Virus record (IMG/VR): IMGVR_UViG_3300037455_000402
Location: 10,951 to 74,950 of that record
Direction: 5' to 3' (one strand)
Length of the DNA stretch: 64,000 nucleotides
Source of the DNA: a virus
Lineage: Duplodnaviria; Heunggongvirae; Uroviricota; Caudoviricetes
Made by a program: the position numbers and the translations under genes. This document shows positions 1 to 14,032 of this stretch, piece after piece. The notes under the pieces were generated by a model. That model searched no databases. It was not told the origin of the DNA and worked only from the letters and a program-made list of their open reading frames with translations. Position 1 is the first letter of the stretch. Each line of letters opens with the position of its first letter.

Positions 1-194
1 AGAATGAAGCCCCTGATATAATACATCTATCCATTCCCCGTTGAATATATCGGGGTCTTCAGGATAAAGATAATCAATTAAGCCAGCTACTGTACTTGGC
101 TCTTCTCTAAGGAGAATGTAGTAAAGCATATCTTCAAGTTTGGTTAACTCTCTGTGAAAGGGAGTATTTTCGATTGTGAGTTCATAGTGTGTCA

Positions 195-521
195 TTAGCA
201 ACACTCTCCCTCGCACTGAGTCTGAAGCTCATTGAGTTCCATCTTTGCTTCAGCCAGTTCTTTAGTGAGTAGTCTTATCTTTTCCTTGAACTGCTTGTTT
301 TCACAAGTGAGCACCTTTATCTGGTCCTCATAAGTTGTACAGTCCTTTTCGTGTTCAGCAGTTTCCTTATCAAGTGCTTCCTGTGCATCGAAGAGCCGCT
401 TTTCAGTCACATTGTACATAGTAAGGAGCTGTCCTTTCTCTTCTTCGCACTTTTTCATTTCATCTTCGAGTTTGAAATAACGAGCCTGAATCTGTAACAA
501 CGCCTGTATTGGATTTGTCAT
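195..521 (-). CDS. hypothetical coiled-coil protein (108 aa)
   Basis: ORF track; heptad-like K/E/L-rich sequence; ATG preceded by GGAGTAAATATG RBS. Confidence 0.55.
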   Translation of the reverse strand: MTNPIQALLQIQARYFKLEDEMKKCEEEKGQLLTMYNVTEKRLFDAQEALDKETAEHEKDCTTYEDQIKVLTCENKQFKEKIRLLTKELAEAKMELNELQTQCEGECC

Positions 522-523
522 AT

Positions 524-880
524 TTACTCCTCACTTTCCTTGTCTGATTCATTGAAGAATACGAGCTTTGTCTCGTAAATCTCGGGATGCTCAACAAAGC
601 CCCATTCAAGAGCTCTCTCACGAATACTCTCAACCAAGTCTGCTTCGAGAATATTCTCATTCGGACGAAGCCAACAAGTCTCAACTATGATAATAGCTGC
701 GCCAGCTTCTGCCGCCATATCTATGAACTGTTCGCTCTGACTGGGGTAATCAGTGTCATCATCAAAAAGGATAAGACCTGCAAGATAACGATTCTTTGTA
801 TCACCTGTTACTTCACGATATTCCTGAATACACCAAGCGTCTTCGCCCCACTTATCACAAGGTAAAAAGTTTATCTGCAT
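524..880 (-). CDS. hypothetical protein
   Basis: ORF track; start moved to ATG (MQINF...) 9 nt downstream of GAGGAGG RBS. Confidence 0.5.
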   Translation of the reverse strand: MQINFLPCDKWGEDAWCIQEYREVTGDTKNRYLAGLILFDDDTDYPSQSEQFIDMAAEAGAAIIIVETCWLRPNENILEADLVESIRERALEWGFVEHPEIYETKLVFFNESDKESEE

Positions 881-881
881 A

Positions 882-1238
882 TTATGCAACCTCCTCAACT
901 ATCATTATCTTAATAAGAGAAAACTCAAAGTCGCCAAAAGCGGCATAGCCATTGCAGTTTTCCTTAAATTCCTTTAACGTATCAGGCAATCTTGAAAGCG
1001 GTTCGCCGCCGCCTGCCTCAAAGTAAAGAGTCTTATTAGTTTCTGAATAGAAAGAAGCAAGCTTTCTTCCGCCGCCATCACACTCTTCACTGTCCCAGAA
1101 AGCATAAAGTAGTTCCTTTCCAAGCAGTTCCATAAAGTAGGCTCTTGCTCTTTCATATGTGGTAAAGATTTTTGTTTCCTGTATATCGAGGTCACTATCA
1201 ATAACAGTGACCAATATCTTTTCGTTTATTCTGTCCAT
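882..1238 (-). CDS. hypothetical protein (118 aa)
   Basis: ORF track; AGGAGAAAATAATG RBS. Confidence 0.55.
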   Translation of the reverse strand: MDRINEKILVTVIDSDLDIQETKIFTTYERARAYFMELLGKELLYAFWDSEECDGGGRKLASFYSETNKTLYFEAGGGEPLSRLPDTLKEFKENCNGYAAFGDFEFSLIKIMIVEEVA

Positions 1239-1462
1239 TATTTTCTCCTTTCAATCTCCATATGGCGGATACTACTACCCGCGGCTTGAGCAGAAGCTTG
1301 AAGCTCCATACTCAGCCATTATCTGATAACCTACATCAACGATGTCTGCATCAGTTGGGTAGAAAGCAAACTTCTCTTCGAAGCACTTCATCTCACCATC
1401 GTTGAATAAAAGATAGTAATTAACTGTATAAGGCATAAATCATTCCTCCGTTCTTTTGGGAA

Positions 1463-1966
1463 TTAATACCATTCCCAGTAGTCAACCTCATCTTCGTCCC
1501 AGTTGATTTCGTTGTAAACTTCCTTGAATTTTTCAAGGTTCACAAAAAGGTCTCTGATGTACCAAGCGTCATAATCTGTGCCGCCGAAGAAGAAACCGCT
1601 TGAAGAAGGGAACTTCTCATTTGCAACCTCGCAGAACTGTTCATATTTTCTGCCGCCGTCCTTTACGAACTTTTCCCAGCTATCAAAGAGTTCTATCCAG
1701 CTCTTTCTACGAGTCTCTTCGTCCTCTTCGTTTTCAATCTGTTCATCGAGCTTCTTGTAGTCAATGTAAAGACCTGTAAGACCGCCGTCTCTTATAACGG
1801 ACTCCATTGTGGAGATTATACCCTCGAAGTTTTCCTGTGTGATTGGGGTAAGTCCGTTATCCTCAAAGTTTTCGAGGTTGTCTGCAAACCATTTACGAAC
1901 TGCGTTTGCCTTTCTCATATAGATTACGTCAACACCGTTAACTCTTATTTCCATATCAAGTCCCAT
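1463..1966 (-). CDS. hypothetical acidic protein (167 aa)
   Basis: ORF track; AGGAGGAAATAATATG RBS. Confidence 0.55.
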   Translation of the reverse strand: MGLDMEIRVNGVDVIYMRKANAVRKWFADNLENFEDNGLTPITQENFEGIISTMESVIRDGGLTGLYIDYKKLDEQIENEEDEETRRKSWIELFDSWEKFVKDGGRKYEQFCEVANEKFPSSSGFFFGGTDYDAWYIRDLFVNLEKFKEVYNEINWDEDEVDYWEWY

Positions 1967-1978
1967 ATTATTTCCTCC

Positions 1979-2359
1979 TTAATTTCTGTAAAAAACATTA
2001 TTGAATGAATAAACTGAATCATTGCTTAGCCCGTTGCTGAGAACAAAACTCAGGACATATACGTCCAAGCCGGGGCTATCAAATACATTATCAGACTCCC
2101 AGTCATCAATCTGATATTCATATTTGTCGCAGAGTGCCCACGCAAAATCTTCGGTGGATATTTCTACGCCCATATCTAAGTCCCAATCATGCTTTTTGAG
2201 ATAGTCTTTGAAGACTTCAACACAGACTTTCGACAAATCTGGAAACATTCTACCAAAGGCATCGTCCCAAGACTCATTGATAGCTCTATCAAGACAAAGA
2301 TAATCGCCACACTCTGAATATATTTCTTCGATGATTTCTTTTACTTCATTAATGTCCAT
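1979..2359 (-). CDS. hypothetical protein
   Basis: ORF track; start set at MDINEVK with AAGGAGAAACAATG RBS. Confidence 0.5.
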   Translation of the reverse strand: MDINEVKEIIEEIYSECGDYLCLDRAINESWDDAFGRMFPDLSKVCVEVFKDYLKKHDWDLDMGVEISTEDFAWALCDKYEYQIDDWESDNVFDSPGLDVYVLSFVLSNGLSNDSVYSFNNVFYRN

Positions 2360-2372
2360 TGTTTCTCCTTTC

Positions 2373-2639
2373 TTAGTGGTCAACACCGTAACCGCTTAAA
2401 ACTATTGTGCCGTCGTCTGTTGCGAACTCGATTAAGCACATCGGCTGCCAGCCTACATAGTGAATGTGTACGACCTTACCGAACTCTGTTACATCATAAA
2501 TGTCATAAGACTCTGAGCAGTAGTCCTGCATATCAATGTAATGAACTAACTCGTCAGGAGTCATTAATGTTGATGTTCTGTACTCGTCCTCAGTGTCGAT
2601 ATCGACAATTCTCTGAACAAGGAATAATCTCTCTTTCAT
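2373..2639 (-). CDS. hypothetical protein (88 aa)
   Basis: ORF track; consensus promoter at 2666-2704 and AGGAAG RBS immediately upstream. Confidence 0.55.
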   Translation of the reverse strand: MKERLFLVQRIVDIDTEDEYRTSTLMTPDELVHYIDMQDYCSESYDIYDVTEFGKVVHIHYVGWQPMCLIEFATDDGTIVLSGYGVDH

Positions 2640-2665
2640 TTTTTAACTTCCTTTCTTAACCTTTT

Positions 2666-2704
2666 CTATATATATTATAACAAAAATTTCTTAAAAAGTA
2701 AATA
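2666..2704 (-). promoter_or_regulatory. sigma70-type consensus promoter (TTTACT-N18-TATAAT), repeat family
   Basis: minus-strand reading TTTACTTTTTAAGAAATTTTTGTTATAATATATAGAAAAGG; member of ~30-copy family. Confidence 0.7.
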
Positions 2705-2773
2705 AGCCGCAAGAATAAAAATTTTAATCTTGCGGCTTACTTTGAAAGAAAGGAAATATTATAGTGAAACTAT

Positions 2774-2850
2774 TGGAGCTCCCGACAGGAATCGAACCTG
2801 CAACCTTCCGCTTACAAGGCGGACGCACTACCTATTGTGCTACAAGAGCA
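2774..2850 (-). tRNA. tRNA-Thr(UGU)
   Basis: cloverleaf by hand; anticodon loop CTTGTAA; T-arm GGTTCGATTCC; G1-C72,C2-G71; CCA encoded. Confidence 0.8.
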
Positions 2851-2952
2851 TCACAAGACGGGGATTTTGATACGGAATTGAACCGTTTGATTTTTTCGGA
2901 ATAGAAATTATTTACCTTAAACTATCAAGTATAGATTGCTGAACCGTCTTAT
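2851..2952 (-). ncRNA. Y-RNA-like structured RNA, short variant (family member a)
   Basis: 5' AAUAAGACGG..CAGCAAUCUAUA box, 3' CCGUCUUGU complementary 7-bp terminal stem; internal T-arm-like ACGGTTCAATTCCGT; flanked by tRNA-Phe and tRNA-Thr. Confidence 0.45.
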
Positions 2953-3028
2953 TGGTGCCGAGGGGGAGAGTCGAACTCCCTACGCCAAGCTCTTCAGGCT
3001 TGCGCTCTACCAGTTGAGCTACCTCGGC
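2953..3028 (-). tRNA. tRNA-Phe(GAA)
   Basis: anticodon loop CTGAAGA; D-arm TAGCTCAACTGGTAGAGC; CCA encoded. Confidence 0.8.
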
Positions 3029-3169
3029 ATTGGTGTCAGTTTTACTTCGCTTTCTTATTTTTTATAGAGGCGTTATCCGCTAAGCCACATATCTGACGCT
3101 CATTGATAAATCGCTGATTGTCTGTCGGTGGTAGTTGAAACTGACAAAATCCGTGTTAACCCCTCTTAA

Positions 3170-3246
3170 TGGTCGGAGATGCGGGACTCGAACCCACAGC
3201 CTCTGCGTCCCAAGCGCAGCCGTCTACCAAATTGGCGTAATCCCCG
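3170..3246 (-). tRNA. tRNA-Pro(UGG)
   Basis: anticodon loop CTTGGGA; C1-G72 typical of bacterial Pro; CCA encoded. Confidence 0.8.
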
Positions 3247-3316
3247 AGGAGTGCGGCATTACCCAGCCGCATGGGTGAATGAAAACATTCCTTTTAATGA
3301 GAACCTTTCGGTTCTT

Positions 3317-3395
3317 TGGTGGAGAAGACGAGCCTCGAACTCGCGACCTCCTGCTTGCAAGGCAGGCGCTCTCCCAGCTGAGCTACAACCCCATT
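3317..3395 (-). tRNA. tRNA-Ala(UGC)-like with imperfect acceptor stem
   Basis: anticodon loop CTTGCAA; G3:U70 present; U5-U68 and U6-U67 mismatches in acceptor (GGGGTTG / CTTCTCC); CCA encoded. Confidence 0.55.
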
Positions 3396-4013
3396 TGACT
3401 TGAAAACTTCATAAAAAATATGATTGCCAGTTTTTATCCTGTACTCATACAACGCTACGCATTATTCAGCCACAGTGACGATAAGTCTGAGCCCCATCCC
3501 CGTCGAGATGAAACTTCTTACCGCAGTTTCCGAAGAAACCCAAGCACTAAGGGGACTCTGTTTACCCCCAACTTTCACCCGTCATTCAGAATATTTGATT
3601 ACTATAAATCTTCTTTAAAGTTTTCAAACCAAACTGAGCCTTGGGCTACTCGCACCACCGTCAGGTTCTTACACGTTTCCGTGTAAGTGTAGGCTCAACT
3701 CCATTATTTTGCGTTCCCTGTATTTGCTCACGTCTTGCGGACGTGGTCTGCAGGGTTATTCCTCACTGAGGCGTCTATTGTTGGAGCAACCAGTTTAGGT
3801 GTGCCATTGCTCACGTTGCACCTGTGCCACGACTTCTCTCTTGATGGCTGGTATACCATCTTGTTCCGCCGCCTTTCGACTTCGGAAAAGAAACCTTATC
3901 AAGGTATCCCTTGACCTGACCTCTCAGCAGTTTCACCGTGCCCTTGCAGAGCTGACTAAGCCCTCATTTTAACACAAGGTTACAACATACTTTTTATGAA
4001 GTTTTCAAGTTTC
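3396..4013 (-). ncRNA. candidate large structured ncRNA (~620 nt; ROOL/GOLLD-like placement)
   Basis: no ORF >90 aa on either strand; 5' ACUUGAAAACUUCAUA and 3' UAUGAAGUUUUCAAGU form a perfect 15-bp terminal stem; sits between tRNA-Ile and tRNA-Ala. Confidence 0.45.
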
Positions 4014-4090
4014 TGGTGCCGCCGAGAAGATTCGAACTTCCGACCTCTCGGTTATCAGCCGAGTGCTCTAACCAACTGAGCTACGACGGC
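4014..4090 (-). tRNA. tRNA-Ile(GAU)
   Basis: anticodon loop CTGATAA; T-arm GGAAGTTCGAATCTTCT; CCA encoded. Confidence 0.8.
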
Positions 4091-4177
4091 ATTTGGTGAA
4101 CCATAAAGTCGGCTCATACTACACATCTATCACCTTTTTTTATAGTAGGAGTCTCATTTGTTCTTAAAACCTACTTG

Positions 4178-4253
4178 ATGGAGCGAGATAAGGGAATCGA
4201 ACCCTCACCCTCTGCATGGCAAGCAGAGATTCTAACCGTTAAACTAATCCCGC
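4178..4253 (-). tRNA. tRNA-Gly(GCC)
   Basis: anticodon loop TTGCCAT; acceptor GCGGGAT/ATCTCGC; CCA encoded. Confidence 0.75.
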
Positions 4254-4321
4254 ATTAATTCCAACTATTAACCGAAGTTGGCACGAGATTGTGAGCAATC
4301 ACCTTGAAAATGCCCGAAGGC

Positions 4322-4410
4322 TGGCGGGAGCGACAGGGTTCGAACCTGCATAGGAAATAAATTTCCGACGGTTAACAGCCGCCTGCCTGAGACCGTTAGG
4401 CTACACTCCC
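4322..4410 (-). tRNA. type-II (long variable arm) tRNA with GUU anticodon, G73 discriminator (Ser-like body, Asn anticodon)
   Basis: acceptor GGGAGTG/CGCTCCC, anticodon stem GGCGG/CCGTC loop CTGTTAA, 13-nt variable hairpin GGAAATTTATTTCC, T-arm GCAGGTTCGAACCCTGT, GCCA end. Confidence 0.5.
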
Positions 4411-4419
4411 ATTTTAAAT

Positions 4420-4495
4420 TGGCGACTCCAACGGGACTCGAACCCGTAACTCCAGCGTGACAGGCTGGTGACTTAACCAGTTAATCGACAGAGCC
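4420..4495 (-). tRNA. tRNA-Asp(GUC)
   Basis: anticodon loop CTGTCAC; T-arm ACGGGTTCGAGTCCCGT; CCA encoded. Confidence 0.75.
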
Positions 4496-4504
4496 ATTAA
4501 TAAT

Positions 4505-4589
4505 TGGTCGGTAGAGAGGGACTCGAACCCCCAACGCCATAGGCAACTGTTTTACAGACAGCTCGCTTAACCAGTTTGCATACCTACCG
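4505..4589 (-). tRNA. tRNA-Tyr(GUA)
   Basis: type II; anticodon loop CTGTAAA; variable arm TGCCTATGGCGTT; C1-G72; CCA encoded. Confidence 0.75.
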
Positions 4590-4686
4590 ATTTGGTTGAC
4601 GTTTAAGTCCGCCGCGCTGCTCATACCCGTTTTTGTTTCTACCGTGAGAACTACATTTGCTCCAAAACTCACTATAAACTTGTCAT

Positions 4687-4763
4687 TGGCGATACCGACG
4701 GGACTCGAACCCGCAACCTCTGGAGTGACAGTCCAGTGCTCTACTCTATTGAACTACGGCACC
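4687..4763 (-). tRNA. tRNA-Asp(GUC), second copy
   Basis: anticodon stem CTGGA/TCCAG loop CTGTCAC; CCA encoded. Confidence 0.75.
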
Positions 4764-5339
4764 ATTAAATAAGCAGGTCATCAAGAGCAGTTGGCTTCGA
4801 ACCAACATCACAGCTTTAACGCTGCATCTTGTCCAGTTAGAAGATACTCTCTATCTGCACAACTTATTTTAACGTGTAGTTGCCAAACACGGTTCTATCT
4901 AACGTAGGTTGTCTCCTCGTTTGTACAAATAAATTCAACTCCAGTAAGTATTCCATTGATTACGTCATTCAGACGTAGAGGGCGTCGAACCCACGACTTA
5001 TCTTTCGTTAAGGCTTTACCTTTCGACTTCTCGTTAGAATTACCCGAACAGCACCACGGGGAGGTGAGAGTCATCGCTGTTCATTGATTGGAAATCATAT
5101 CAGTACGGACGTCCAATCTGGAATACCGATATTCTTTCTACGCCATCAATCAGTGGCGGCTTGTTTTAAGAGCTAATTCAAGTTGTGCTTTCCAACCTTT
5201 TTCACTCAGGTAGTATCTTCACTTGCGAACCTCAGGTTTTCCGAACTTGAAACCTTAGTAAAGCGGGAGGATTTACCTCTTGAAACCCTTCAAAGTCAGA
5301 CATTTTATTTAAAGCTAAGCAAAAATGCCAAAACTTCTC
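4764..5339 (-). ncRNA. ~575-nt non-coding spacer with tRNA-fragment-like hairpins (candidate structured RNA or tRNA pseudogene debris)
   Basis: no credible ORF; contains T-arm-like GGTTCGAAGCCAAC and GGGTTCGACGCCC without complete cloverleaves. Confidence 0.3.
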
Positions 5340-5415
5340 TGGCTGACAAGGTGGGACTCGAACCCACAACCCCGCGGTTAACAGCCGCGTGCTCTGCCAG
5401 TTGAGCTACTCGCCA
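5340..5415 (-). tRNA. tRNA-Asn(GUU)
   Basis: anticodon stem CGCGG/CCGCG loop CTGTTAA; U1-A72 acceptor TGGCGAG/CTTGTCA; CCA encoded. Confidence 0.75.
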
Positions 5416-5455
5416 ATCTGTATTGTAATTATTATGTAGGTTTTCTCAACCTTTT

Positions 5456-5493
5456 CTATAATAATTATATCATAAATTTTCTAAAAAGTCAAT
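5456..5493 (-). promoter_or_regulatory. consensus promoter TTGACT-N17-TATAAT
   Basis: minus strand TTGACTTTTTAGAAAATTTATGATATAAT; drives tRNA-Asn cluster. Confidence 0.7.
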
Positions 5494-5531
5494 TTCTCAA
5501 CTTCTTAAAAATTTTATAATCGAAAGGAATC

Positions 5532-5557
5532 TGGCGGAGTTCAAATCGGTGCCGCCA
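5532..5557. terminator. GC-rich hairpin H1 (GGCGG-N14-CCGCC), terminator-like
   Basis: TGGCGGAGTTCAAATCGGTGCCGCCA; related hairpins at 5584-5608 and 5790-5812 all with TTCAA in loop. Confidence 0.45.
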
Positions 5558-5583
5558 GCCACCAGTTATTTTAGAACGGAGGT

Positions 5584-5608
5584 GGGCGGATTTCAAACAG
5601 CGCCGCCC
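5584..5608. terminator. GC-rich hairpin H2
   Basis: GGGCGGATTTCAAACAGCGCCGCCC followed by T-run on plus strand. Confidence 0.45.
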
Positions 5609-5641
5609 CGCCAGTTGTTTTTGTTTCTTTCTTAACCTTTT

Positions 5642-5679
5642 CTATAAATATTATATCATAGTTTTTAGAAGAAGTCAAG
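5642..5679 (-). promoter_or_regulatory. consensus promoter TTGACT-N17-TATAAT
   Basis: TTGACTTCTTCTAAAAACTATGATATAAT; transcript runs into hairpins H2/H1 with no ORF (possible ~120-nt sRNA). Confidence 0.65.
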
Positions 5680-5708
5680 ATTTTTTAAACTCAAATTTTT
5701 GAAATTAT

Positions 5709-5782
5709 TGGTTGCGGACCGTAGACTCGAACTACGAACTCAAGCTTATGAGGCTTGTATTATGCCATTTCACTAATCCGCA
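5709..5782 (-). tRNA. tRNA-Met/Ile2(CAU)
   Basis: anticodon stem CAAGC/GCTTG loop CTCATAA; U1-A72; CCA encoded. Confidence 0.7.
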
Positions 5783-5789
5783 ATATACT

Positions 5790-5812
5790 GGGGCGGCAGT
5801 TTCAACCGCCCC
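5790..5812 (-). terminator. GC hairpin H3 downstream of CDS 5827-6246
   Basis: GGGGCGGCAGTTTCAACCGCCCC. Confidence 0.45.
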
Positions 5813-5826
5813 GTTTGAGTTCAGAA

Positions 5827-6246
5827 TCAGTCCTCAGCCTCAGCCTTTTCCTTACGCTTAGCCTCGTCCTTAGCAATCTTCTCTGCCTTTGCCTTAGCCT
5901 TCTCTGCGTCCTTAGTTGCCTTTTCAGCTACATAAGTCTCATACTCAGCCTTAGCTGCTGCAAAATCGAAAGCTGTATAAGTCTTCTTATCAGTCTTTCT
6001 GTTTGCGAACTCCTTGACAGTAGGATTGATTGTTACGACGATAGGATTTGTTTCGCCCTCAACCTCGGCAGTATCAACGATAACTGCGATTTCGTTTGTC
6101 TTTGAAGTATTGCCTGTTCTTACCATTGCTACGGCATCTTCGCCATACTCGCCTGCAAGAAAAGCTGTTATCTTCTCGATAACCTCAGTCTTCTTGTCAG
6201 CCTTTACCTTTGTGATTGTGTTTTCCTTAGTAATAACTGTTGCCAT
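5827..6246 (-). CDS. hypothetical protein with Lys/Ala/Glu-rich C-terminal tail (139 aa)
   Basis: ORF track; start at MATVITK with AGAGG RBS; C-terminus KATKDAEKAKAKAEKIAKDEAKRKEKAEAED. Confidence 0.55.
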   Translation of the reverse strand: MATVITKENTITKVKADKKTEVIEKITAFLAGEYGEDAVAMVRTGNTSKTNEIAVIVDTAEVEGETNPIVVTINPTVKEFANRKTDKKTYTAFDFAAAKAEYETYVAEKATKDAEKAKAKAEKIAKDEAKRKEKAEAED

Positions 6247-6319
6247 TTTGTACCTCTTTCTCTCACTTAAGGTCGTGAGCACCATTTAGATTATTTTTGA
6301 AAGGCTTTCTCAACCTTTT

Positions 6320-6357
6320 CTATATATATTATAACAAAGATTTTTGAAAAAGTCAAG
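6320..6357 (-). promoter_or_regulatory. consensus promoter TTGACT-N17-TATAAT
   Basis: TTGACTTTTTCAAAAATCTTTGTTATAAT. Confidence 0.7.
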
Positions 6358-6382
6358 ATTTTATTTTCTTGAAATTTTCAAT

Positions 6383-6458
6383 TGGTGCCGCGGGGCGGAA
6401 TTGAACCGCCGACACGAGGATTTTCAGTCCTCTGCTCTACCTACTGAGCTACCGCGGC
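6383..6458 (-). tRNA. tRNA-Phe(GAA), second copy
   Basis: anticodon stem GAGGA/TCCTC loop CTGAAAA; acceptor GCCGCGG/CCGCGGC; CCA encoded. Confidence 0.75.
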
Positions 6459-6462
6459 ATTT

Positions 6463-6540
6463 TGGTCGGGCATCAGGGACTCGAACCCTGAACTTGCTGA
6501 TTAAGAGTCAGCTACTCTGAACCAATTGAGTTAATGCCCG
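6463..6540 (-). tRNA. tRNA-Lys(CUU)
   Basis: anticodon stem GCTGA/TCAGC loop CTCTTAA; C1-G72; CCA encoded. Confidence 0.7.
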
Positions 6541-6735
6541 ATTATTACTGTTTGACTGACTTGTGTCTTATTCCTAACAGCTTAGGAAGGATATTGTTGA
6601 CCAGTAAATATCCAGAACTGCTGGGGGCTTCTCGCACCGCAGGCACGCCAGTTTTTCATCAGTCAAATGAGGCACTGGAATCTTCCTCAGTCGTTTTCTC
6701 CAAACGGTATGGAGCAGGATAATCGACCAAATCCT

Positions 6736-6812
6736 TGGTCACGGCAACGAGGTTCGAACTCGTATTTCCACCTTGAAAGGGTGGTGTCCTCGACCATTTA
6801 GACGATGCCGCG
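6736..6812 (-). tRNA. tRNA-Glu(UUC)
   Basis: Glu-type D-arm TCGTCTAAATGGTCGAGGAC; anticodon loop CTTTCAA; CCA encoded. Confidence 0.75.
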
Positions 6813-6925
6813 TTCTTAGAAGAGGTTGACCTTGGTATTGCAACCAGCCAGTCGATTTGACAACTCACCCCAGAATCGAACTGAGGCTTCACAAGTGTTT
6901 TGAAATAATCTTTTCTCAACCTTTT

Positions 6926-6963
6926 CTATAATAATTATATCATATTTTTTAGTAAAAGTCAAG
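6926..6963 (-). promoter_or_regulatory. consensus promoter TTGACT-N17-TATAAT
   Basis: TTGACTTTTACTAAAAAATATGATATAAT. Confidence 0.7.
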
Positions 6964-6982
6964 ATTTTTTAAATCTTAATTT

Positions 6983-7330
6983 TTACCATTCTGTGATGTC
7001 GGGGATTCTTTCTACATCTACGTCCCAGTTGTAAAGGTCGTCCTCAGTTGCTTCAGTAACAGTAAAGCCACAGTCAGCAACGAAGTTCTCATACTCACCA
7101 GAATCGTAGAAGCAAGCCTCGCCGCACTCTTCACCACGCTCTTCGTACTCGTCTTCGTCCATATCCTCTGGAGACCACTGAACGAGGTGCTCCCAAGTCT
7201 GAATATAGTCAGGGAGACCTTCGTCTGCCCAAACCTCAGCCTGTTCCTTGCACTTTGCGATTACGAAGTCAGTTTCATCGGTTCCAGCATAGCCGCAACC
7301 GTAAGTTACCTTAAAGATTTTTCCTTCCAT
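6983..7330 (-). CDS. hypothetical acidic protein (115 aa)
   Basis: ORF track; AGAGGAATTAAAAATG RBS. Confidence 0.55.
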   Translation of the reverse strand: MEGKIFKVTYGCGYAGTDETDFVIAKCKEQAEVWADEGLPDYIQTWEHLVQWSPEDMDEDEYEERGEECGEACFYDSGEYENFVADCGFTVTEATEDDLYNWDVDVERIPDITEW

Positions 7331-7355
7331 TTTTAATTCCTCTCTTTCATCTTTT

Positions 7356-7393
7356 CTATAATAATTATATCATAACTTTTTAGAAAAGTCAAG
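7356..7393 (-). promoter_or_regulatory. consensus promoter TTGACT-N17-TATAAT
   Basis: TTGACTTTTCTAAAAAGTTATGATATAAT. Confidence 0.7.
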
Positions 7394-7422
7394 ATTTCTT
7401 TCTTTTTAATTTTTTATTTGAT

Positions 7423-7497
7423 TGGTACCCCCAGAAGGAATCGAACCTTCGTCCCACGCTTAGAAGGCGCGTGCACTATCCGCTGTGCTATGGGGGC
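7423..7497 (-). tRNA. tRNA-Arg(UCU)
   Basis: anticodon stem CGCGC/GCGTG loop CTTCTAA; CCA encoded. Confidence 0.75.
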
Positions 7498-7686
7498 ATT
7501 TATGTGGCAGGTTTAATGTACCTGCCAAGCATTGATGACGAGATTCTTCCAGCCATCAGCTTCATATTTTGGTATGTCTACCTCTGCCGCTTCATGAGAG
7601 CTATAAACCCCGAATTATCTTTGGAGCATTTACATTAATGAAAAGCTCACATTTTGTAATTCCCGTAAGAATGTAAACAGTTTCCA

Positions 7687-7956
7687 TTACTTTTCCTCCC
7701 TCTCAAAATAATCCGCAGGATAACACCAGAAATAGTCGTCGATGTAGAAGTGGTCAAAAGCAAGAAGACCATACTTCTGTTCTCTCTGCTCCTTGATGTT
7801 TGCTTCAAGTTCTGCAAGCAGTTCCTTAGCATCTTCTTCGTTATGATTTTCCTTGATATACTCAACGACATAATCATAAGCAAGATTAATGTCTGAGAAT
7901 ATCTTATAGTTACAGTCGTGGTCTTCAAGAATGAAGAGTTCTCTTACAGGTTTCAT
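7687..7956 (-). CDS. hypothetical protein (89 aa)
   Basis: ORF track; AAGGAAGTAAAACATATG RBS. Confidence 0.55.
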   Translation of the reverse strand: MKPVRELFILEDHDCNYKIFSDINLAYDYVVEYIKENHNEEDAKELLAELEANIKEQREQKYGLLAFDHFYIDDYFWCYPADYFEREEK

Positions 7957-7983
7957 ATGTTTTACTTCCTTTCTCTTAACTTT

Positions 7984-8021
7984 CTATATATATTATATCA
8001 AAAGTTTTCTAAAAAGTAAAG
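7984..8021 (-). promoter_or_regulatory. consensus promoter TTTACT-N17-TATAAT
   Basis: CTTTACTTTTTAGAAAACTTTTGATATAAT. Confidence 0.65.
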
Positions 8022-8044
8022 ATTTTAAAAGCTTTAAATTTTAA

Positions 8045-8118
8045 TTGGCAGGGGCTAAAGGAATCGAACCCTTATCTTGCGGGTTGGAGCCGCTTATAAT
8101 ACCATTATACGAAACCCC
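8045..8118 (-). tRNA. tRNA-Trp(CCA)
   Basis: A1-U72, discriminator G, anticodon loop CTCCAAC; CCA encoded. Confidence 0.75.
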
Positions 8119-8480
8119 TATTACTGAGGACTTATAATGCCTACTCATGTCCACCCGCCACAGCAGATGTCCTTCTTTCAGCGTTAAATCGCCCTCAACT
8201 TAAAGCTTTAAGTGAATGTTCCGCCGCCACCCGTCGACTGATGGCGTTGTCCTCTCTCTGGAAGTTTTCAGGTTACCACCCCACTACTCTTCGTTGTAAT
8301 GATACGGAAGGTCCAACCTCGCCATGGACCTACAGCTACTACCCTTTGTCTTCTACTAAGGTATAGTTAGTATTCAAGTTTTAGTACCAGAACTAACAAA
8401 GGTACACTTAAGCCCGAACTAAGTTTAACGTCTTGTCGGTAAGACCACAGGAAAGGGGATAGGGATATTCTGTGCTGTTT
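8119..8480 (-). ncRNA. ~360-nt non-coding spacer of unknown function
   Basis: no ORF; between tRNA-Trp and Ala-like pseudo-tRNA. Confidence 0.2.
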
Positions 8481-8552
8481 CTGAAGCTGAGGAGACTCGA
8501 ACTCCTAACCTACGGCTTCCCGCCGCTGCTCTCCCTATTGAGCTACAACCCC
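8481..8552 (-). pseudogene. tRNA-Ala-like pseudo-tRNA or tRNA-like element (no canonical anticodon loop, no CCA)
   Basis: 5' half GGGGTTGTAGCTCAATAGGGAGAGC nearly identical to tRNA-Ala at 3317-3395; G3:U70 kept; anticodon arm GCGGC-GGGAA-GCCGT has a 5-nt loop. Confidence 0.4.
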
Positions 8553-8580
8553 TAACAGGATGGAATCTTTCCCGAACCCT

Positions 8581-8657
8581 TGGTACCAGCGGTGGGACTC
8601 GAACCCGCAACCCCCTGCGTATGAAGCAGGTGCTCTCACCAATTGAGCTACGCTGGC
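8581..8657 (-). tRNA. tRNA-Met/Ile2(CAU), second
   Basis: anticodon stem CCTGC/GCAGG loop TTCATAC; CCA encoded. Confidence 0.65.
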
Positions 8658-8817
8658 ATATTCACAAGATACACTTAAAAAAACCACTCCGCTGTGTTTG
8701 TCTACTTCACTACTCGCCCATAATGGTGGGCGAGGATAGGATTTGCACCTACGAAGCCTTTCGGCGGCGGATTTACTTTGGGTTAAATTAACAATAGATT
8801 GCTGTATGTATCTTAAT
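8658..8817 (-). ncRNA. Y-RNA-like RNA with permuted tRNA-like domain (family member b)
   Basis: 5' AUUAAGAUACAU-ACAGCAAUCUAUU box; 3' GUGUAUCUU pairs with 5' end; internal order T-arm (GTAGGTGCAAATCCTAT) - acceptor 3' strand CTCGCCC-A-CCA - loop - acceptor 5' strand GGGCGAG - D-arm-like; U8 run. Confidence 0.5.
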
Positions 8818-8896
8818 TGGTGGACGATACGGGAATCGAACCCGTCTGATTTCCTGTTTGCAGGACAGGTGACCACCCCTTGCAGTCCCATCGCCC
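8818..8896 (-). tRNA. tRNA-Ala(UGC) variant with C33
   Basis: G3:U70; anticodon stem CCTGT/ACAGG loop CCTGCAA (C at position 33); CCA encoded. Confidence 0.55.
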
Positions 8897-9105
8897 ATTA
8901 ATTGAGGTAGTCGTACGCACTACTTTCATATTCCAGAAGCCGCTCAATCGGCTCGGTTAAGTCTGGCTTACGTGGACTTCCATTCACGCTACATAATTTC
9001 TCGAATCCAGTAGGGGAACGCCGCCGTTATGGTAGACGATTAATATACCTCGGCTCCTTACAGCCGCCGTGACCGACAGGTTTGTACGAACACCCTGCAA
9101 ACGAT

Positions 9106-9180
9106 TGGTACTCACGAGTGGGATTGAACCACCGACCTTTTCCACGTCAAGGAACTGCTCTCCCGCTGAGCTACGCGAGT
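9106..9180 (-). tRNA. tRNA-Val(GAC)
   Basis: A1-U72; anticodon loop TTGACGT; T-arm GGTGGTTCAATCCCACT; CCA encoded. Confidence 0.7.
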
Positions 9181-9327
9181 ATATAAAGAGTAAGTAGGTG
9201 CGGTGACATAAAGTTCTTCCGCAACACCCAAAAGCCAATGCTGACAGTCATACGACTTTCTTTCCAAAACCTCAATCTCATTGTCAGCGCTAACACCAAG
9301 ATATTTTGATTTTGCTACTTACTATAT

Positions 9328-9401
9328 TGGTTGCCGTTGAGAGATTCGAACTCCCGATTACTGGGTCAGAGCCAGCTGTGTTACCACTTCACTAAACGGC
9401 A
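9328..9401 (-). tRNA. tRNA-Gln(CUG)
   Basis: U1-A72; anticodon stem GCTGG/CCAGT loop CTCTGAC; CCA encoded. Confidence 0.75.
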
Positions 9402-9797
9402 ATAAATTAACAAAATTGACCAAGAAAAACTTCAACTGTTCATTTACTCTATGCCAGACACTCGGTAGTTGGTCTACATAGCCAACAGAACTCGCTAAAG
9501 CGTTCTTTCCACTTCCACTCCTCAAATCCGAGAAGAAGTTTCTCTTAGTTTCTTTCGGAGGTCTTGAGGGATGCTCTCAATTCCTCTTGGGAGGTTATAA
9601 CCAACAAGCTGACTGTTTCTCTTTACGTTGAGAGGTTATCTTACGCCGCCTAACGCTGCGGAGCGAAGCGAACAATGGCAAGGGACCTTCAGCATAGGGA
9701 GCAGTCCCCGCGGAGTGAACTTCGACGATTTTGTCGCTTGTAGATAAGCTGCATGAAAGTATACGCCGCCCTATTTCGCATCTGCCACCATTCAAAT
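9402..9797 (-). ncRNA. ~390-nt non-coding spacer (unknown structured RNA?)
   Basis: no ORF; GC-rich hairpins (GGGACTGCTCCC); between two tRNA-Gln genes. Confidence 0.2.
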
Positions 9798-9871
9798 TGG
9801 TTTCCGCTGAGAGACTCGAACTCCCATTCTTGGCTTCAGAGACCAGTGTCCTACCATTAGACGAAACGGAA
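9798..9871 (-). tRNA. tRNA-Gln(CUG), second copy
   Basis: U1-A72, D-arm TCGTCTAATGGTAGGAC, anticodon loop CTCTGAA; CCA encoded. Confidence 0.7.
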
Positions 9872-9877
9872 TTAAAT

Positions 9878-9966
9878 TGGTCGGCAGGGTAGGACTCGAA
9901 CCTACAAGACTCCTAAGAGCAACGGGGTTACAGCCCGCGACGCTACCAATTACGCTCTACCTGCCG
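9878..9966 (-). tRNA. tRNA-Tyr(GUA), second copy
   Basis: type II; anticodon stem GCGGG/CCCGT loop CTGTAAC; long variable arm; C1-G72; CCA encoded. Confidence 0.75.
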
Positions 9967-10190
9967 ATTAATAAGTGAGTAGCGGATAGTTACCTCACTT
10001 TCCAAGTTATGTACTTGGTCTAACACTCGCTTTACAGCTGATGGCGAATGTCTTGAGCAGCCGTGGCTCTCCGTAACAACTTAAAACTATTCGCAGACTC
10101 GAACTGCACCTTACTCCCTGAAGGAATTGAACCTTCTTACCTTGATAAATCAAGGTCACGACGTCACGTCTCTAATAGTTTAAGATTTAA

Positions 10191-10266
10191 TGGTGACGGC
10201 AACGGGATTCGAACCCGTATTTCTACCTTGAGAGGGTAACGACCTAAGCCATTAGTCGATGCCGCC
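10191..10266 (-). tRNA. tRNA-Glu(CUC)
   Basis: Glu-type D-arm TCGACTAATGGCTTAGGTC; anticodon loop CTCTCAA; CCA encoded. Confidence 0.7.
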
Positions 10267-10385
10267 ATTAATATCAAATATTCCTTTCGGCTACTCGACG
10301 CAAAGAGTGCCGAGGTGGACCGTTAACCCACATCCATCTCCGAAGGTGCTGACGGCGGAATATTTAATACTTTTCTCAACCTTTT

Positions 10386-10423
10386 CTATATATATTATAC
10401 TATAATTTTTAAGAAAAGTCAAG
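10386..10423 (-). promoter_or_regulatory. consensus promoter TTGACT-N17-TATAAT
   Basis: TTGACTTTTCTTAAAAATTATAGTATAAT. Confidence 0.7.
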
Positions 10424-10443
10424 ATTTTTTAATTTGAAATTTT

Positions 10444-10519
10444 TGGTCGGAGTGACAGGACTCGAACCTGCGGCATCATGGTCCCAAACCACGCATTCTA
10501 CCAACTGAATTACACCCCG
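10444..10519 (-). tRNA. tRNA-Pro(UGG), second copy
   Basis: C1-G72; anticodon stem CGTGG/CCATG loop TTTGGGA; CCA encoded. Confidence 0.7.
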
Positions 10520-10786
10520 ATTTATGGAAGCTTTCCCCGTAGGGAGGTTTACCAACCCCTTAGCTAAGTATTGCTTAACTGTCTTCACGCATACAGTCAT
10601 AGCTCTGTAAACTATCGCGGCTATGTTGCTCACATTTAATCGTTTTCTCATTGAAACGGAGTTGTCATACATAACAAAAACACTATCTGAAAGTCACCTG
10701 TTTTACCGACAGGTCGAGCAAGTTATCCAGTGCTTGCCACTGTGGAAGCTTTGCACGTATACCAGCAGGCTTACCAGCCGAAATGT

Positions 10787-11179
10787 TTATGCGAAGTAAA
10801 GTCCTTCAGACCAAGAAGGAAAATCAGGTTCAATTACCTGAGCCGCAGACTCTCCTGCCATTTTTCCGTCTTCCCACCAGTGCATCCACCAGTCCTTGCT
10901 GTCTTCACCCTCGCCCTCAAGAGCGAACTTGAACTCAGGGAATTTTGCAGCGAACGCAGTCATATCCTCATCGTGTTCATACCATTTCCAGTCAGAAGAG
11001 TATTCAACAAGACTGTTGAGAAGCTCTATATTACTATCAAGCTCATCTTCCTTGAAATAAGAGCCATTGAAGATACGAGCAAACTCAGTTGCAAGTTTCG
11101 GAAATGCAGAATGTTCTGCAGTTATAGGGTTATTCTCTTTATCGACGATTGTCATTTTGAAATTGGTTATGTATCCCAT
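10787..11179 (-). CDS. hypothetical Trp-rich acidic protein (130 aa)
   Basis: ORF track; AAGGAAGTTAAAAATATG RBS. Confidence 0.55.
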   Translation of the reverse strand: MGYITNFKMTIVDKENNPITAEHSAFPKLATEFARIFNGSYFKEDELDSNIELLNSLVEYSSDWKWYEHDEDMTAFAAKFPEFKFALEGEGEDSKDWWMHWWEDGKMAGESAAQVIEPDFPSWSEGLYFA

Positions 11180-11206
11180 ATTTTTAACTTCCTTTCTTCA
11201 CCTTTT

Positions 11207-11244
11207 CTATAATAATTATAACATAATTTTTTAGAAAAGTCAAG
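11207..11244 (-). promoter_or_regulatory. consensus promoter TTGACT-N17-TATAAT
   Basis: TTGACTTTTCTAAAAAATTATGTTATAAT. Confidence 0.7.
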
Positions 11245-11267
11245 TTTTATTTTTCATAAATTTTTAA

Positions 11268-11343
11268 TGGAGCTAACGGAGGGACTCGAACCCTCAGCCT
11301 ATTGATTACTAATCAATTGCACCACCGATTGTGCTACGTCAGC
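11268..11343 (-). tRNA. tRNA-Thr(AGU) (A34)
   Basis: G1-C72,C2-G71 Thr-like; anticodon stem ATTGA/TCAAT loop TTAGTAA gives A34-G35-U36; CCA encoded. Confidence 0.55.
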
Positions 11344-11345
11344 AT

Positions 11346-11420
11346 TGGCACCCTCGGAAAGAATCGAACTTTCATCTTGTGGTTCGTAGCCACATATCCT
11401 ATCCGTTGAACGACGAGGGT
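11346..11420 (-). tRNA. tRNA-Arg(ACG)
   Basis: anticodon stem TGTGG/CCACA loop CTACGAA; CCA encoded. Confidence 0.75.
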
Positions 11421-11635
11421 ATATAGGAATGAGAGTACGCGTCCTCTCTACGACAATCCTGTGCCGCCTTGTCTCTCCTCACGTGAAGACTTGGATACGG
11501 ACGCTCCTTACAGTTTAGGAGTAACTCAACGCAACTTATACGGCGTTTCGGCAGTAAGGCGTTTAACGAAAAAGCCTTATCCCAACGTCCCTTACTTTGA
11601 GGTCGAAGGGCTAACCTAAGGGGATTGAACCCTGT

Positions 11636-11725
11636 TGGAGGTGATGGTCGGATTCGAACCGACGAGAAGGGGATTGCCCTGTTCACGGAGTTGCAGTCCG
11701 CCGCCTTACCACTTGGCTACATCAC
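11636..11725 (-). tRNA. type-II tRNA with GCA (Cys) anticodon, irregular acceptor end
   Basis: 3-bp D-stem GCC/GGC (Ser/Leu-like), anticodon stem GCGGA/TCCGT loop CTGCAAC, ~21-nt variable arm, T-arm GTCGGTTCGAATCCGAC; 3' end CATCACU-CCA with G1-U72 and no clear discriminator. Confidence 0.45.
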
Positions 11726-11763
11726 CATTTGTGAGAGAGATTTTAAATGTCTCTCTCAACTTT

Positions 11764-11802
11764 TCTATATATATTATAGCATATTTTTTTTTAAATTGTA
11801 AA
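11764..11802 (-). promoter_or_regulatory. consensus promoter TTTACA-N18-TATAAT
   Basis: CTTTACAATTTAAAAAAAAATATGCTATAAT. Confidence 0.65.
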
Positions 11803-11813
11803 GATTTCTTTTT

Positions 11814-12347
11814 TTAGTAAGAATTATAAAATCGAAGTGTTATCTTCCAGTCTTCAAGATGAAGAAGAATATCGCAAAGCTCTTCACGGGAAAGACTACA
11901 ATCCCTATCCTCTACAATATTCTCAATAGCATCGCTGCAATTAATATATTGTATATAACAGCTTCTTGCAACAGAGTTCTTCTCATTAAGTATATCAGGA
12001 AGTCTTATGAAAAGATTATCCCAATTAGACATTCTTTGAAGCTGTCTAAGGACAATACTTCTGCCACACACTTCATTCCAGATACTATCTTCAAAGAAGA
12101 TATGATTGCGGTCCTTGCAAGCCTCAAGAAGACAGTCTATAACACGAGGAAGTACATCGGGAGTCGTTTCAATAAGAAAGTCGTCCTGTGTATCGAGAAT
12201 TTCGTCCTTATTTTTGCTTGCAACATTCATTATTTCAGAACGAAGCTCCCAAAACTTACGGAAGTAACCTATCTCAATGTCAAAGTCATCGACCTTATTA
12301 TCTTTTTCCCTGTGGAAATGAGCTTCTATGGAAAAATCAAGTCCCAT
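11814..12347 (-). CDS. hypothetical protein (177 aa)
   Basis: ORF track; start at MGLDFS with AAGGAGAG RBS; overlaps stop of upstream small ORF. Confidence 0.55.
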   Translation of the reverse strand: MGLDFSIEAHFHREKDNKVDDFDIEIGYFRKFWELRSEIMNVASKNKDEILDTQDDFLIETTPDVLPRVIDCLLEACKDRNHIFFEDSIWNEVCGRSIVLRQLQRMSNWDNLFIRLPDILNEKNSVARSCYIQYINCSDAIENIVEDRDCSLSREELCDILLHLEDWKITLRFYNSY

Positions 12348-12471
12348 CTTCGTCTCTCCTTTCCATATAATCATCGGCATCGCTCGCCGCCTTACAGAAA
12401 GTCAATGGAATTAATACGAGAATTGCATAGACTGTAAGTGCGCCCGTAAAGAGTAACATTGCTTTAATCAT
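12337..12471 (-). CDS. small hydrophobic membrane peptide (44 aa)
   Basis: MIKAMLLFTGALTVYAILVLIPLTFCK...; GGAGGCATAAGATG RBS; below ORF-track size cutoff. Confidence 0.4.
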   Translation of the reverse strand: MIKAMLLFTGALTVYAILVLIPLTFCKAASDADDYMERRDEDGT

Positions 12472-12472
12472 C

Positions 12473-12640
12473 TTATGCCTCCTTTACAACAGTTACGTTG
12501 TCAAGCTGTACGTTGTACTTAAGTGCGAAGGCTATTCTTGCTCTTTCAAGTTCGCCCTCATTCTTGACTGTTACGGTCTCAGTGTAGAAATCCTCTCCGC
12601 CAAGACCTTCTGCTGTAATTGCTTTTAAAGTAATGCTCAT
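12473..12640 (-). CDS. small hypothetical protein (55 aa)
   Basis: MSITLKAITAEGLGGEDFYTE...; GAAAGGAAGTAAAAGATATG RBS; downstream of promoter 12665-12702. Confidence 0.45.
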   Translation of the reverse strand: MSITLKAITAEGLGGEDFYTETVTVKNEGELERARIAFALKYNVQLDNVTVVKEA

Positions 12641-12664
12641 ATCTTTTACTTCCTTTCTGATTTT

Positions 12665-12702
12665 CTATATATATTATAACAAAAATTTCTTTAAAAGTAA
12701 AG
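12665..12702 (-). promoter_or_regulatory. consensus promoter TTTACT-N17-TATAAT
   Basis: CTTTACTTTTAAAGAAATTTTTGTTATAAT. Confidence 0.65.
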
Positions 12703-12770
12703 ATTTTATTTGCTATAAAATTAAGAAAAGGCGATAGCTTATGCAGCTACCGCCCTTATTTTACGTTTAA

Positions 12771-13265
12771 TTAGCCTTCTACCTTATTGACAATTTCACT
12801 ATCACAAAGCAAGTAACGGTCAGAGAGCTGTGCTATCTGGTTATACCAAACATCACCTGCATATGCCATTACCCTGTCATAAAGGTTTGTATAACAAGCT
12901 AAGTAAAAACCTACAAACTGTCTATATGCTTTACGATATGCTATCGCCTTAGCAAATTCAATATCATTAGCGTCGCCGACTCTAAGTACAGCTGTGCCGT
13001 GATATTCATAGTCAGTAGGGTCGTAAATATAAGAGTTTGAGCCGCTTATCTTCTCGGGACGGCACCAAGGTTCGTGCGCCCACTTAAACTGAGGAGTAGC
13101 TGCAATATTCATACCAATCATCTGTGCTGTACGCATAAGGATATAGTAAGGGTCTCTCGCTTCAAAGCCCTCAAAAGTAACAAAGCAGTGAACCTAACTT
13201 CCTGCATAACCATATCTAACGTCCTTAACACGAATCTTCACATTAGGACAAGAATACTGAATTTC
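12771..13265 (-). CDS. hypothetical protein, reading frame contains one in-frame TAG (codon 26)
   Basis: MNEIQYSCPNVKIRVKDVRYGYAGS-TAG-VHCFVTFEGFEARDPYYILMRTAQMIG...; strong GAGGAGG RBS only at the upstream ATG (13265). Confidence 0.5.
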
Positions 13266-13301
13266 GTTCATTTTTAAATCCTCCTCAGAATTGATTTTAT
13301 T

Positions 13302-13652
13302 TGGTGGAGATGACGGGAATCGGACCCGTGTCCAAACCTCTTAGTATCTATCGTCTACAAGTTTAGGATTCCCGAGCCTGTTCTCTTCTTGCCGCGCTCT
13401 TTCGGGACCACGAATGGCGGTAGCGTATTGGTCATTAATACGACTTACTGTCACCAAGCCAGTAAGAAGAATAAAGAATAAAATCGAAAGGGATGATAGA
13501 GTTCTTCTTTATTAGTAAACTACGATAACCCTTATGAGCTGCGATTAGGCAGCAAATGCAAAATCGTTTGCGTTTAAGTTTAAGTTGGCTATAAGGTTGC
13601 CGACCACTTGCAGATAGGGAACGCCAAAGCCTGTCGAAACCTAAACATCCCC
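13302..13652 (-). ncRNA. ssrA: tmRNA (SsrA), tag reading frame ...ANDFAFAA-stop
   Basis: 5' GGGGAUGUUUAGGUUUCGACAGG matches tmRNA 5' consensus; 3' GGACACGGGUCCGAUUCCCGUCAUCUCCACCA tRNA-like end; internal GCAAACGATTTTGCATTTGCTGCCTAA = ANDFAFAA*. Confidence 0.8.
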
Positions 13653-14028: not shown

Positions 14029-14032
14029 CATT

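Follow-up and report, generated by a model that had tools for sequence, protein, structure and literature searches.

A ROOL RNA gene with a long terminal helix between two tRNA genes of an uncultured phage

What is encoded by a spacer of 621 nucleotides (nt) that separates two phage tRNA genes and whose two ends can pair with each other? The question is raised by a stretch of 64,000 nt from the IMG/VR virus record IMGVR_UViG_3300037455_000402 (positions 10,951 to 74,950 of that record; Caudoviricetes), called the window here, in which the spacer occupies positions 3393-4013. The order of transcription is tRNA-Ile, then the spacer (read from 4013 to 3393), then tRNA-Ala. A prediction made from the letters alone (the original prediction) had placed in this spacer a large ornate noncoding RNA of the ROOL or GOLLD class, and that proposal is borne out for ROOL. 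The spacer holds a full-length member of the ROOL (Rumen-Originating, Ornate, Large) family, its stems have been kept by compensatory evolution, and its 25-base-pair (bp) terminal helix is the stem that the family calls P1. We consider it very probable, judging from sequence, that positions 3398-4010 (minus strand) are a functional ROOL gene of a large uncultured phage, whose RNA would be made as part of a tRNA transcript, released by the nucleases that mature tRNAs and then assembled into a nanocage.

The identity of the element was established with covariance models. The window was scanned against the models of Rfam 15, with the curated gathering score as the threshold of acceptance, and RF03087 (ROOL) matched the minus strand at 3408-4003 with 264.1 bits, the gathering score of this family being 99.1 (E = 3.3e-59 in the 64-kb window). 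A search limited to the 901 nt of positions 3250-4150 returned the same locus (E = 4.6e-61). The alignment is not truncated: it takes in model positions 1-574 of 574 and spans 596 nt. Extending the match outward by the terminal helix gives a gene of 613 nt at 3398-4010 (minus strand), a length near the family mean of 581 nt (PMC5737381). The original prediction had named the Rfam models of both candidate families as the means of checking it, and the outcome was positive for ROOL and negative for GOLLD (RF01998), which was matched neither in the whole window when the gathering score was required nor at the cut-offs E <= 1 (3250-4150) and E <= 0.1 (1-20000); the GOLLD alternative was dropped. 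Intron and rRNA families likewise gave no match at the gathering score in the whole window and none at E <= 1 in 3250-4150. Folded as a whole, the spacer reaches -218.5 kcal/mol (z = -6.07), and none of 20 shuffled versions folds as well.

How do the two ends of the spacer relate to this family? The terminal 16-mers are exact reverse complements of each other (3398-3413 and 3995-4010), as had been noted, and a long perfect terminal helix is indeed present. Its size had been put too low, at 15 bp in the title of the original prediction and 16 nt in its text: 20 perfect Watson-Crick pairs join 3398-3417 with 3991-4010, and the contiguous helix has 25 pairs. As DNA, the 25-nt arms of this inverted repeat (I1, 3398-3422 and 3986-4010) are complementary at 24 of 25 positions; in the RNA sense, which is that of the minus strand, the lone mismatch becomes a G-U pair. 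Among 5000 shuffles the longest perfect helix between the 35-nt ends of the spacer was 11 pairs, against the 20 observed. The 5′ arm (ACUUGAAAACUUCAUAAAAAGUAUG, 3986-4010, minus strand) and the 3′ arm with which it pairs (CAUAUUUUUUAUGAAGUUUUCAAGU, 3398-3422, minus strand) lie in the same register as the P1 pairs of the Rfam model, and the terminal helix is thus ROOL stem P1, a stem that is resolved in published ROOL structures (PMC12286853). In the Rfam model the inner 16 bp of P1 form part of the mature fold; beyond the paired region of that model the helix runs on for another 13 bp. Since uninterrupted terminal helices of 19-31 bp are found in seven of the 13 other full-length copies described below, a long P1 is typical of the family and not peculiar to the copy in the window.

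A blastn search with the 621-nt spacer found no match in 50,697 GenBank phage records; cultured phages thus offer no relative at the level of DNA, and relatives were gathered instead by a motif scan of IMG/VR. The core motif TTCTGAATGANNNGTGAAAGTT retrieved 17 viral contigs there, all 17 of which carry ROOL (175-363 bits) among tRNA genes. In bacterial genomes the same motif was present in only two contigs, from a Clostridia and a Ruminococcus metagenome-assembled genome, neither of which resembles the window outside ROOL. These bacterial matches give only a hint of the host, and they agree with the Firmicutes phage context that had been proposed, as does the phage-like character of the window itself. 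Thirteen full-length copies were aligned with that of the window (n = 14). Identity to the window copy is 93.8% for the contig labelled L008, 77.5% for L005 and 65.2% for L015, and 43-49% for the other ten.

The conservation of structure was assessed at two depths. Across all 14 copies (43-94% identical), RNAalifold predicted 89 pairs, and 80 of them show compensatory changes, some in P1. For the closer clade, the Rfam-derived structure and the full P1 were mapped onto an alignment of four sequences (the window, L008, L005 and L015). Changes on both sides were found in 43 of 168 pairs, against 6-15 when the partners were slid by 1-3 columns, and 81.6% of cells were paired as opposed to 39-48% in the slid controls; none of 500 shuffles reached any of the observed pairing measures. 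P1 itself behaves in the same manner within this clade, with compensatory changes in 4 of its 25 pairs and 93.8% of cells paired. The original prediction had been open to the finding that no model matches and that homologues show a decayed spacer lacking conserved structure; what was found is a ROOL match and homologues with abundant compensatory changes.

The interior of the RNA agrees with the family in sequence as well as in fold. The most conserved core block (AUAUUCUGAAUGACGGGUGAAAGU, 3572-3595, minus strand) consists of columns that are invariant across the 14 copies, and the blocks AAUAG, AGUAGC, UUCUGAAUGA, GUGAAAGUU and UCAG are invariant in all 14 including the window. In a further block, which reads GGAUAC in the window, GAUA is kept in every copy, and the wider Rfam consensus blocks ACAAUAGACGC and GCUCAGACUUAUC are matched by the window copy too. 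The hairpin that the original prediction gave as its example exists at 3668-3687 (minus strand), although it had been quoted from the plus strand and the RNA is encoded on the minus strand. In the RNA sense it reads CUUACACG-GAAA-CGUGUAAG, an 8-bp stem with a GAAA tetraloop in agreement with the Rfam consensus GccgaGAAAucggC, and within the clade four of the five pairs of this stem (helix 17) covered by Rfam carry compensatory changes. In the parsed Rfam alignment 130 of 159 consensus pairs are canonical in the window copy, 110 of them Watson-Crick. This is a lower bound, because one helix (GGUAAG/CUUAUC) that is mismatched in the Rfam register pairs fully in a shifted register and is both fully paired and covarying in the independent RNAalifold prediction. 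The cmscan alignment yields nested pairs only, and these stem counts refer to such pairs; the family also has pseudoknots, three in the 2017 consensus (PMC5737381) and P10 and P13 in the cryo-electron microscopy (cryo-EM) model.

One stretch of the interior is variable. This linker, rich in A and U (approximately 3596-3640, minus strand), is contained in a large loop that 3641-3646 and 3577-3582 close. Its counterpart in the Rfam model is the long unpaired loop, and no block of the 14-copy alignment has more gaps or less conservation. The corresponding linker is disordered inside the cage in other ROOLs (PMC12286853). Part of the linker (3608-3633) forms a second inverted repeat with 3394-3419 (I2, 26 nt, 77% complementary), and the linker shares UUGAAAACUU with the 5′ arm of P1. 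A pairing between the linker and the 3′ arm of P1 was rejected as probably due to chance in A/U-rich sequence, because the linker sequence differs in L008. One conserved hairpin loop, at 3501-3504, is GACG in the window, L008, L005, L015, L007 and L014 and is UCGCU, UAGCU or UCGCC in the other eight copies, UCGCU being the Rfam consensus.

The setting of the gene bears on how its RNA could be made. ARAGORN calls tRNA-Ile(GAU), with an encoded CCA, at 4014-4090 (minus strand; Rfam tRNA, 74.5 bits) and tRNA-Ala(UGC) at 3317-3392 (minus strand; 57.9 bits), so the adjacency to these two tRNAs that had been claimed is correct; it is part of an array of 44 tRNA genes and a transfer-messenger RNA (tmRNA). 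P1 begins 3 nt after the former and ends 5 nt before the latter. The window ROOL is closer to its tRNA neighbours than any full-length copy outside its own clade, and the other ROOL copies have different tRNA neighbours, 3-940 nt away. L008 shares the upstream order Met, Asn, spacer, Asp, Tyr, Asp, Gly, Ile, ROOL, with tRNA-Ile again immediately before the RNA. L005 keeps the order ROOL, tRNA-Ala, tRNA-Pro and is without the Ile gene. Because of this absence and the other neighbours of other copies, the Ile and Ala flanks are a feature of the lineage and not a relic of an rRNA spacer.

Spacers of 3 and 5 nt leave no room for a promoter or terminator belonging to ROOL alone. The nearest strong upstream candidate for a promoter is a sigma-70-type site at 5464-5492 (minus strand; TTGACT, 17 nt, TG-TATAAT) that agrees with 11 of 12 consensus positions. 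It is one of four identical minus-strand copies of TTGACT-17 nt-TG-TATAAT, the others being at 6934-6962, 6328-6356 and 5650-5678. A fifth near-consensus promoter is seen at 2674-2702 (minus strand); the repeats read TTGACT or TTTACT, then 17 nt, then TG-TATAAT, and they are embedded in a longer repeated block (ttctcaaccttttctata...) and divide the tRNA array into several units. Promoter-like sites number 16 where 6.7 are expected. A candidate terminator, a hairpin followed by a U-rich tract (UUUACUUUUU, 2703-2739, minus strand; -23.7 kcal/mol, z = -7.08), lies after the last tRNA of the block (tRNA-Thr), and its position suggests that it would end the transcription unit containing ROOL.

Several observations weigh against the interpretation of this locus as a functional ROOL gene made and processed with its tRNA neighbours, and some of them would fit a decaying, non-functional ROOL remnant that lingers between two tRNA genes. 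The score of 264.1 bits ranks low among the full-length copies, which span 239-363 bits, 29 of the 159 consensus pairs are non-canonical (at least one such helix being merely in another register), and one hairpin loop, GACG, departs from the consensus. That loop, if it is an inter-subunit contact, could also make assembly differ in this RNA. Contacts of this kind conserved in ROOL cages are kissing loops and A-minor bridges (B1-B6), among them a symmetric kissing loop to which the GACG loop might correspond. A remnant is nonetheless highly improbable: every one of the 574 model positions is matched, nothing is missing from the core blocks, and relatives that are 65-94% identical have preserved the stems by 43 compensatory pair changes, a count that the slid and shuffled controls come nowhere near. 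Neutral decay, moreover, would not have spared a mismatch-free helix of 25 bp. The size, the tRNA flanks and the particular pair involved (tRNA-Ile(GAU) with tRNA-Ala(UGC) is typical of 16S-23S spacers) would point to a large structured RNA of another kind: GOLLD, for instance, a group I or II intron, or what is left of the spacer of an rRNA operon. This explanation retains hardly any probability, given that the searches described above matched none of these families, that ROOL accounts for the full length, that the Ile flank is absent in L005 and that other ROOL copies sit beside other tRNAs. The notion that the region encodes a protein fares no better and has next to no chance of being right. 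The spacer had been described as free of open reading frames (ORFs), and in the literal sense it is not, since 16 ORFs of at least 20 amino acids (aa) overlap it, the longest being an ATG-initiated frame of 88 aa on the plus strand (3420-3686). But this frame is shifted in L008, which is 93.8% identical, and broken by stops in L005, L015 and L007; the similarity left among relatives follows the conserved RNA blocks; and the neighbouring genes all lie on the opposite strand. Because the frame is broken in relatives, the 88-aa antisense ORF is taken to be noncoding. The short ORFs of the spacer lack conservation, and a protein-coding function was rejected.

A different doubt concerns not what the RNA is but how it is expressed: the same ROOL could have its own promoter and terminator and be transcribed separately from the tRNAs. 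The proposed promoter and terminator of the tRNA unit are consensus matches only, and the use of that promoter for ROOL is a prediction from its sequence. Terminator-like sites in 2400-7100 number 4 where 3.7 are expected by chance, a weak terminator-like site and another promoter-like site stand between the strong promoter and ROOL, and tight coupling to tRNAs is not universal, since ROOL in other contigs is 23-940 nt away from the closest tRNA. A separate unit is still quite improbable. The short spacers leave no space for its signals, no minus-strand promoter-like site was found between tRNA-Asn (5340-5415) and ROOL, and the sole terminator-like match near the 3′ end of ROOL is an internal hairpin of the RNA. 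A last difficulty lies in processing: RNase Z of Bacillus-type systems spares tRNAs that encode their CCA, and for this reason the enzyme that makes the 5′ end of ROOL is uncertain.

A functional ROOL gene embedded in a tRNA unit remains the preferred interpretation, and a route from transcript to cage can be proposed for it. ROOL would be co-transcribed as part of a tRNA polycistron from the near-consensus promoter about 1.5 kb upstream. Weinberg et al. (2017, PMC5737381) found ROOL in phages and in the vicinity of tRNAs, and suggested for the family as a whole that it is co-transcribed with them. The cut of RNase P at the 5′ end of tRNA-Ala would set the 3′ end of ROOL, and its 5′ end could be set either by the endonuclease that frees the 3′ end of tRNA-Ile or by RNase III acting on the long P1 duplex. 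P1 would then clamp both ends together and shield them from exonucleases. The released RNA may self-assemble, without protein, into a closed homo-oligomeric nanocage with the variable linker inside, by analogy with other ROOLs, for which models have been deposited (PDB 9MDS, 9J3T, 9J6Y): in the RNA-only cages solved by cryo-EM, the env-120 and Enterococcus faecalis (Efa) ROOLs are octamers with D4 symmetry and that of L. salivarius (Lsa) is a hexamer (PMC12286853, PMC12990946).

Comparison with known systems places the element more precisely. With other ROOL RNAs (RF03087; PMC5737381, PMC12286853, PMC12990946) it shares the full covariance-model match, the stems, the conserved blocks, the size, the internal linker and the setting among tRNAs in a phage; it differs from the consensus in having 13 additional bp in P1 and a GACG loop instead of UCGCU, and its sequence is only 43-49% identical to most of the other copies found here. 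GOLLD, likewise large, ornate and carried by phages and prophages in the neighbourhood of tRNA islands, also makes a nanocage of RNA alone (PMC12286853). Its sequence and fold, however, are unrelated to those of ROOL, and it is larger (many members exceed 800 nt), with a variable 5′ domain. Another likeness is to the processing stalks of rRNA, where a large structured RNA is again bracketed by a long end duplex within a transcript punctuated by tRNAs. In bacterial rRNA operons the flanks of 16S and 23S RNA form long duplexes that are cut by RNase III, and tRNA-Ile and tRNA-Ala lie in the spacer. This likeness suggests that the window RNA might be released by RNase III and RNase P in a comparable way. 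It is an analogy only. The window element has no similarity to rRNA, and the inner part of its P1 belongs to the mature fold. The prohead RNA (pRNA) of phage phi29, a ring mounted on the packaging motor together with protein partners, offers a parallel of another kind. It too is a phage-encoded RNA that acts as a homo-oligomer through loop-loop pairing (PMC12990946), but pRNA is short and forms a four- or five-membered ring, whereas ROOL, at about 600 nt, closes into a cage that contains no protein.

The rest of the window is phage-like too. The window has 39.6% G+C and its proteins match phage families. All 44 tRNA genes called by ARAGORN (2774-19238 and 40447-40836) and the tmRNA (13302-13652; tag peptide ANDFAFAA) are on the minus strand; by phage standards this is an unusually large translation kit. 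The window and the IMG/VR contig 3300045988_136890 (represented by L008 and L023) agree at 84-92% identity across more than 20 kb, and a 12-kb Logan contig from SRR12681659 is identical to the window. Profile matches point to a set of minus-strand genes for RNA repair and surveillance: a Ro-like protein (DUF2828 and DUF7788, phrog_850; 38803-40281), a T4 Rnl1-like ligase (21388-22512), an Rnl2-like ligase (46045-46950) and a PNK/HD protein (41715-42626). The window also encodes a UvrD-like helicase and a PurZ-like adenylosuccinate synthetase (42697-43848, minus strand; phrog_1211, E = 2e-33; Pfam Adenylsucc_synt), and the latter hints at a possible substitution of 2-aminoadenine for adenine in the DNA of the phage. 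Within the tRNA array there are weak matches to YrlA, a Y RNA-like family, at 16542-16609 and 8495-8636 (minus strand; 34.5 and 30.5 bits, gathering score 69).

The Ro-like gene deserves separate mention, as such a gene is also found 3-5 kb from ROOL in L004 (8709-10172), L005 (5739-7184) and L016 (8075-9493). To see how general this is, phage genes for Ro-like proteins were taken together with as much as 10 kb of flanking sequence, and these 80 loci were searched with an nhmmer profile of ROOL that recovered all 17 positive controls. ROOL lay within 10 kb in only two of the 80, one of them being the same contig as L005. A general association of Ro-like (DUF2828) proteins with ROOL was rejected on this basis, and any link would at best run in one direction. 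Both seem to be carried commonly by phages rich in tRNA genes.

Other parts of the tRNA array gave observations of their own. A sub-threshold candidate for a self-cleaving ribozyme like that of hepatitis delta virus (HDV) is located at 5013-5084 (minus strand), with 30.5 bits for RF00094 (gathering score 50) and 30.0 bits for RF02682 (gathering score 44; E = 0.0012 in a search of 601 nt). Its P1 (GAACAGC/GCUGUUC) and P3 (ACC/GGU) stems pair without non-standard pairs, and the candidate may belong with the HDV-like ribozymes reported beside phage tRNAs. It is the only Rfam family match in the 576-nt spacer at 4764-5339 (minus strand) between tRNA-Asn and tRNA-Asp. The block containing this spacer is about 85% identical in L008, and the fold is only modestly above that of shuffles (z = -1.97); two T-arm-like GGUUCGA hairpins in it, where ARAGORN calls no tRNA, could be unusual or broken tRNAs. 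A tRNA-Asn(GUU) at 4322-4410 (minus strand) is called at 89 nt, unusually long for a tRNA of this kind; positions 4261-4417, approximately, are the only interruption in an alignment that otherwise runs unbroken between the window and L008, and ARAGORN calls no Asn gene there in L008. Two tRNAs with a CUA anticodon (13749-13825 and 14270-14344, minus strand), labelled Pyl by ARAGORN, are probably amber suppressors, and a tRNA-Sec-like sequence at 13942-14029 (minus strand) falls just below threshold (42.8 bits against 47). TAG is the rarest stop in the window, and no long minus-strand frame in the window continues in frame past a TAG. Recoding of stop codons by the two tRNA(CUA) thus finds no support within the window, and any recoding would affect genes outside it.

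What might the RNA do for the phage? Published ideas on the role of ROOL include the encapsulation of tRNAs, ribosomes or other molecules. Judging by the surroundings, we would guess that the phage uses the RNA during infection as a compartment or scaffold, one that acts on tRNAs, ribosomes or RNA-damage factors. A more specific proposal is that in this lineage ROOL has been built into a tRNA transcript as rRNA is into its operon and is excised by way of the 25-bp P1 and the tRNA processing sites. The nanocage would then work with the phage tRNAs, the Rnl1-like and Rnl2-like ligases, the PNK/HD and Ro-like proteins and the tmRNA, either sheltering or staging phage tRNAs or trapping host anticodon nucleases or ribosomes. 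This proposal is unlikely to be right: its support comes only through the gene neighbourhood, and the one link that could be tested here, between Ro-like proteins and ROOL, failed as a general rule (2/80 loci).

The locus thus belongs to a known family and does not represent a novel type of element; publications already describe the family, the phages and tRNAs among which it occurs and the structure of its cage. The original call of ROOL, for which nothing but the sequence was used, was accurate. Few natural RNAs are known to build a nanocage without protein, ROOL being one of them, and this locus is a clean example for experiments on its biogenesis and function: the mature ends are predictable because the RNA lies flush between its tRNAs (3 and 5 nt), and relatives at 94%, 78% and 65% identity supply compensatory changes for mutational design. 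Its context, with 44 tRNAs, a tmRNA, two RNA ligases, a PNK/HD enzyme and a Ro-like protein, could guide hypotheses on how ROOL and tRNAs are connected.

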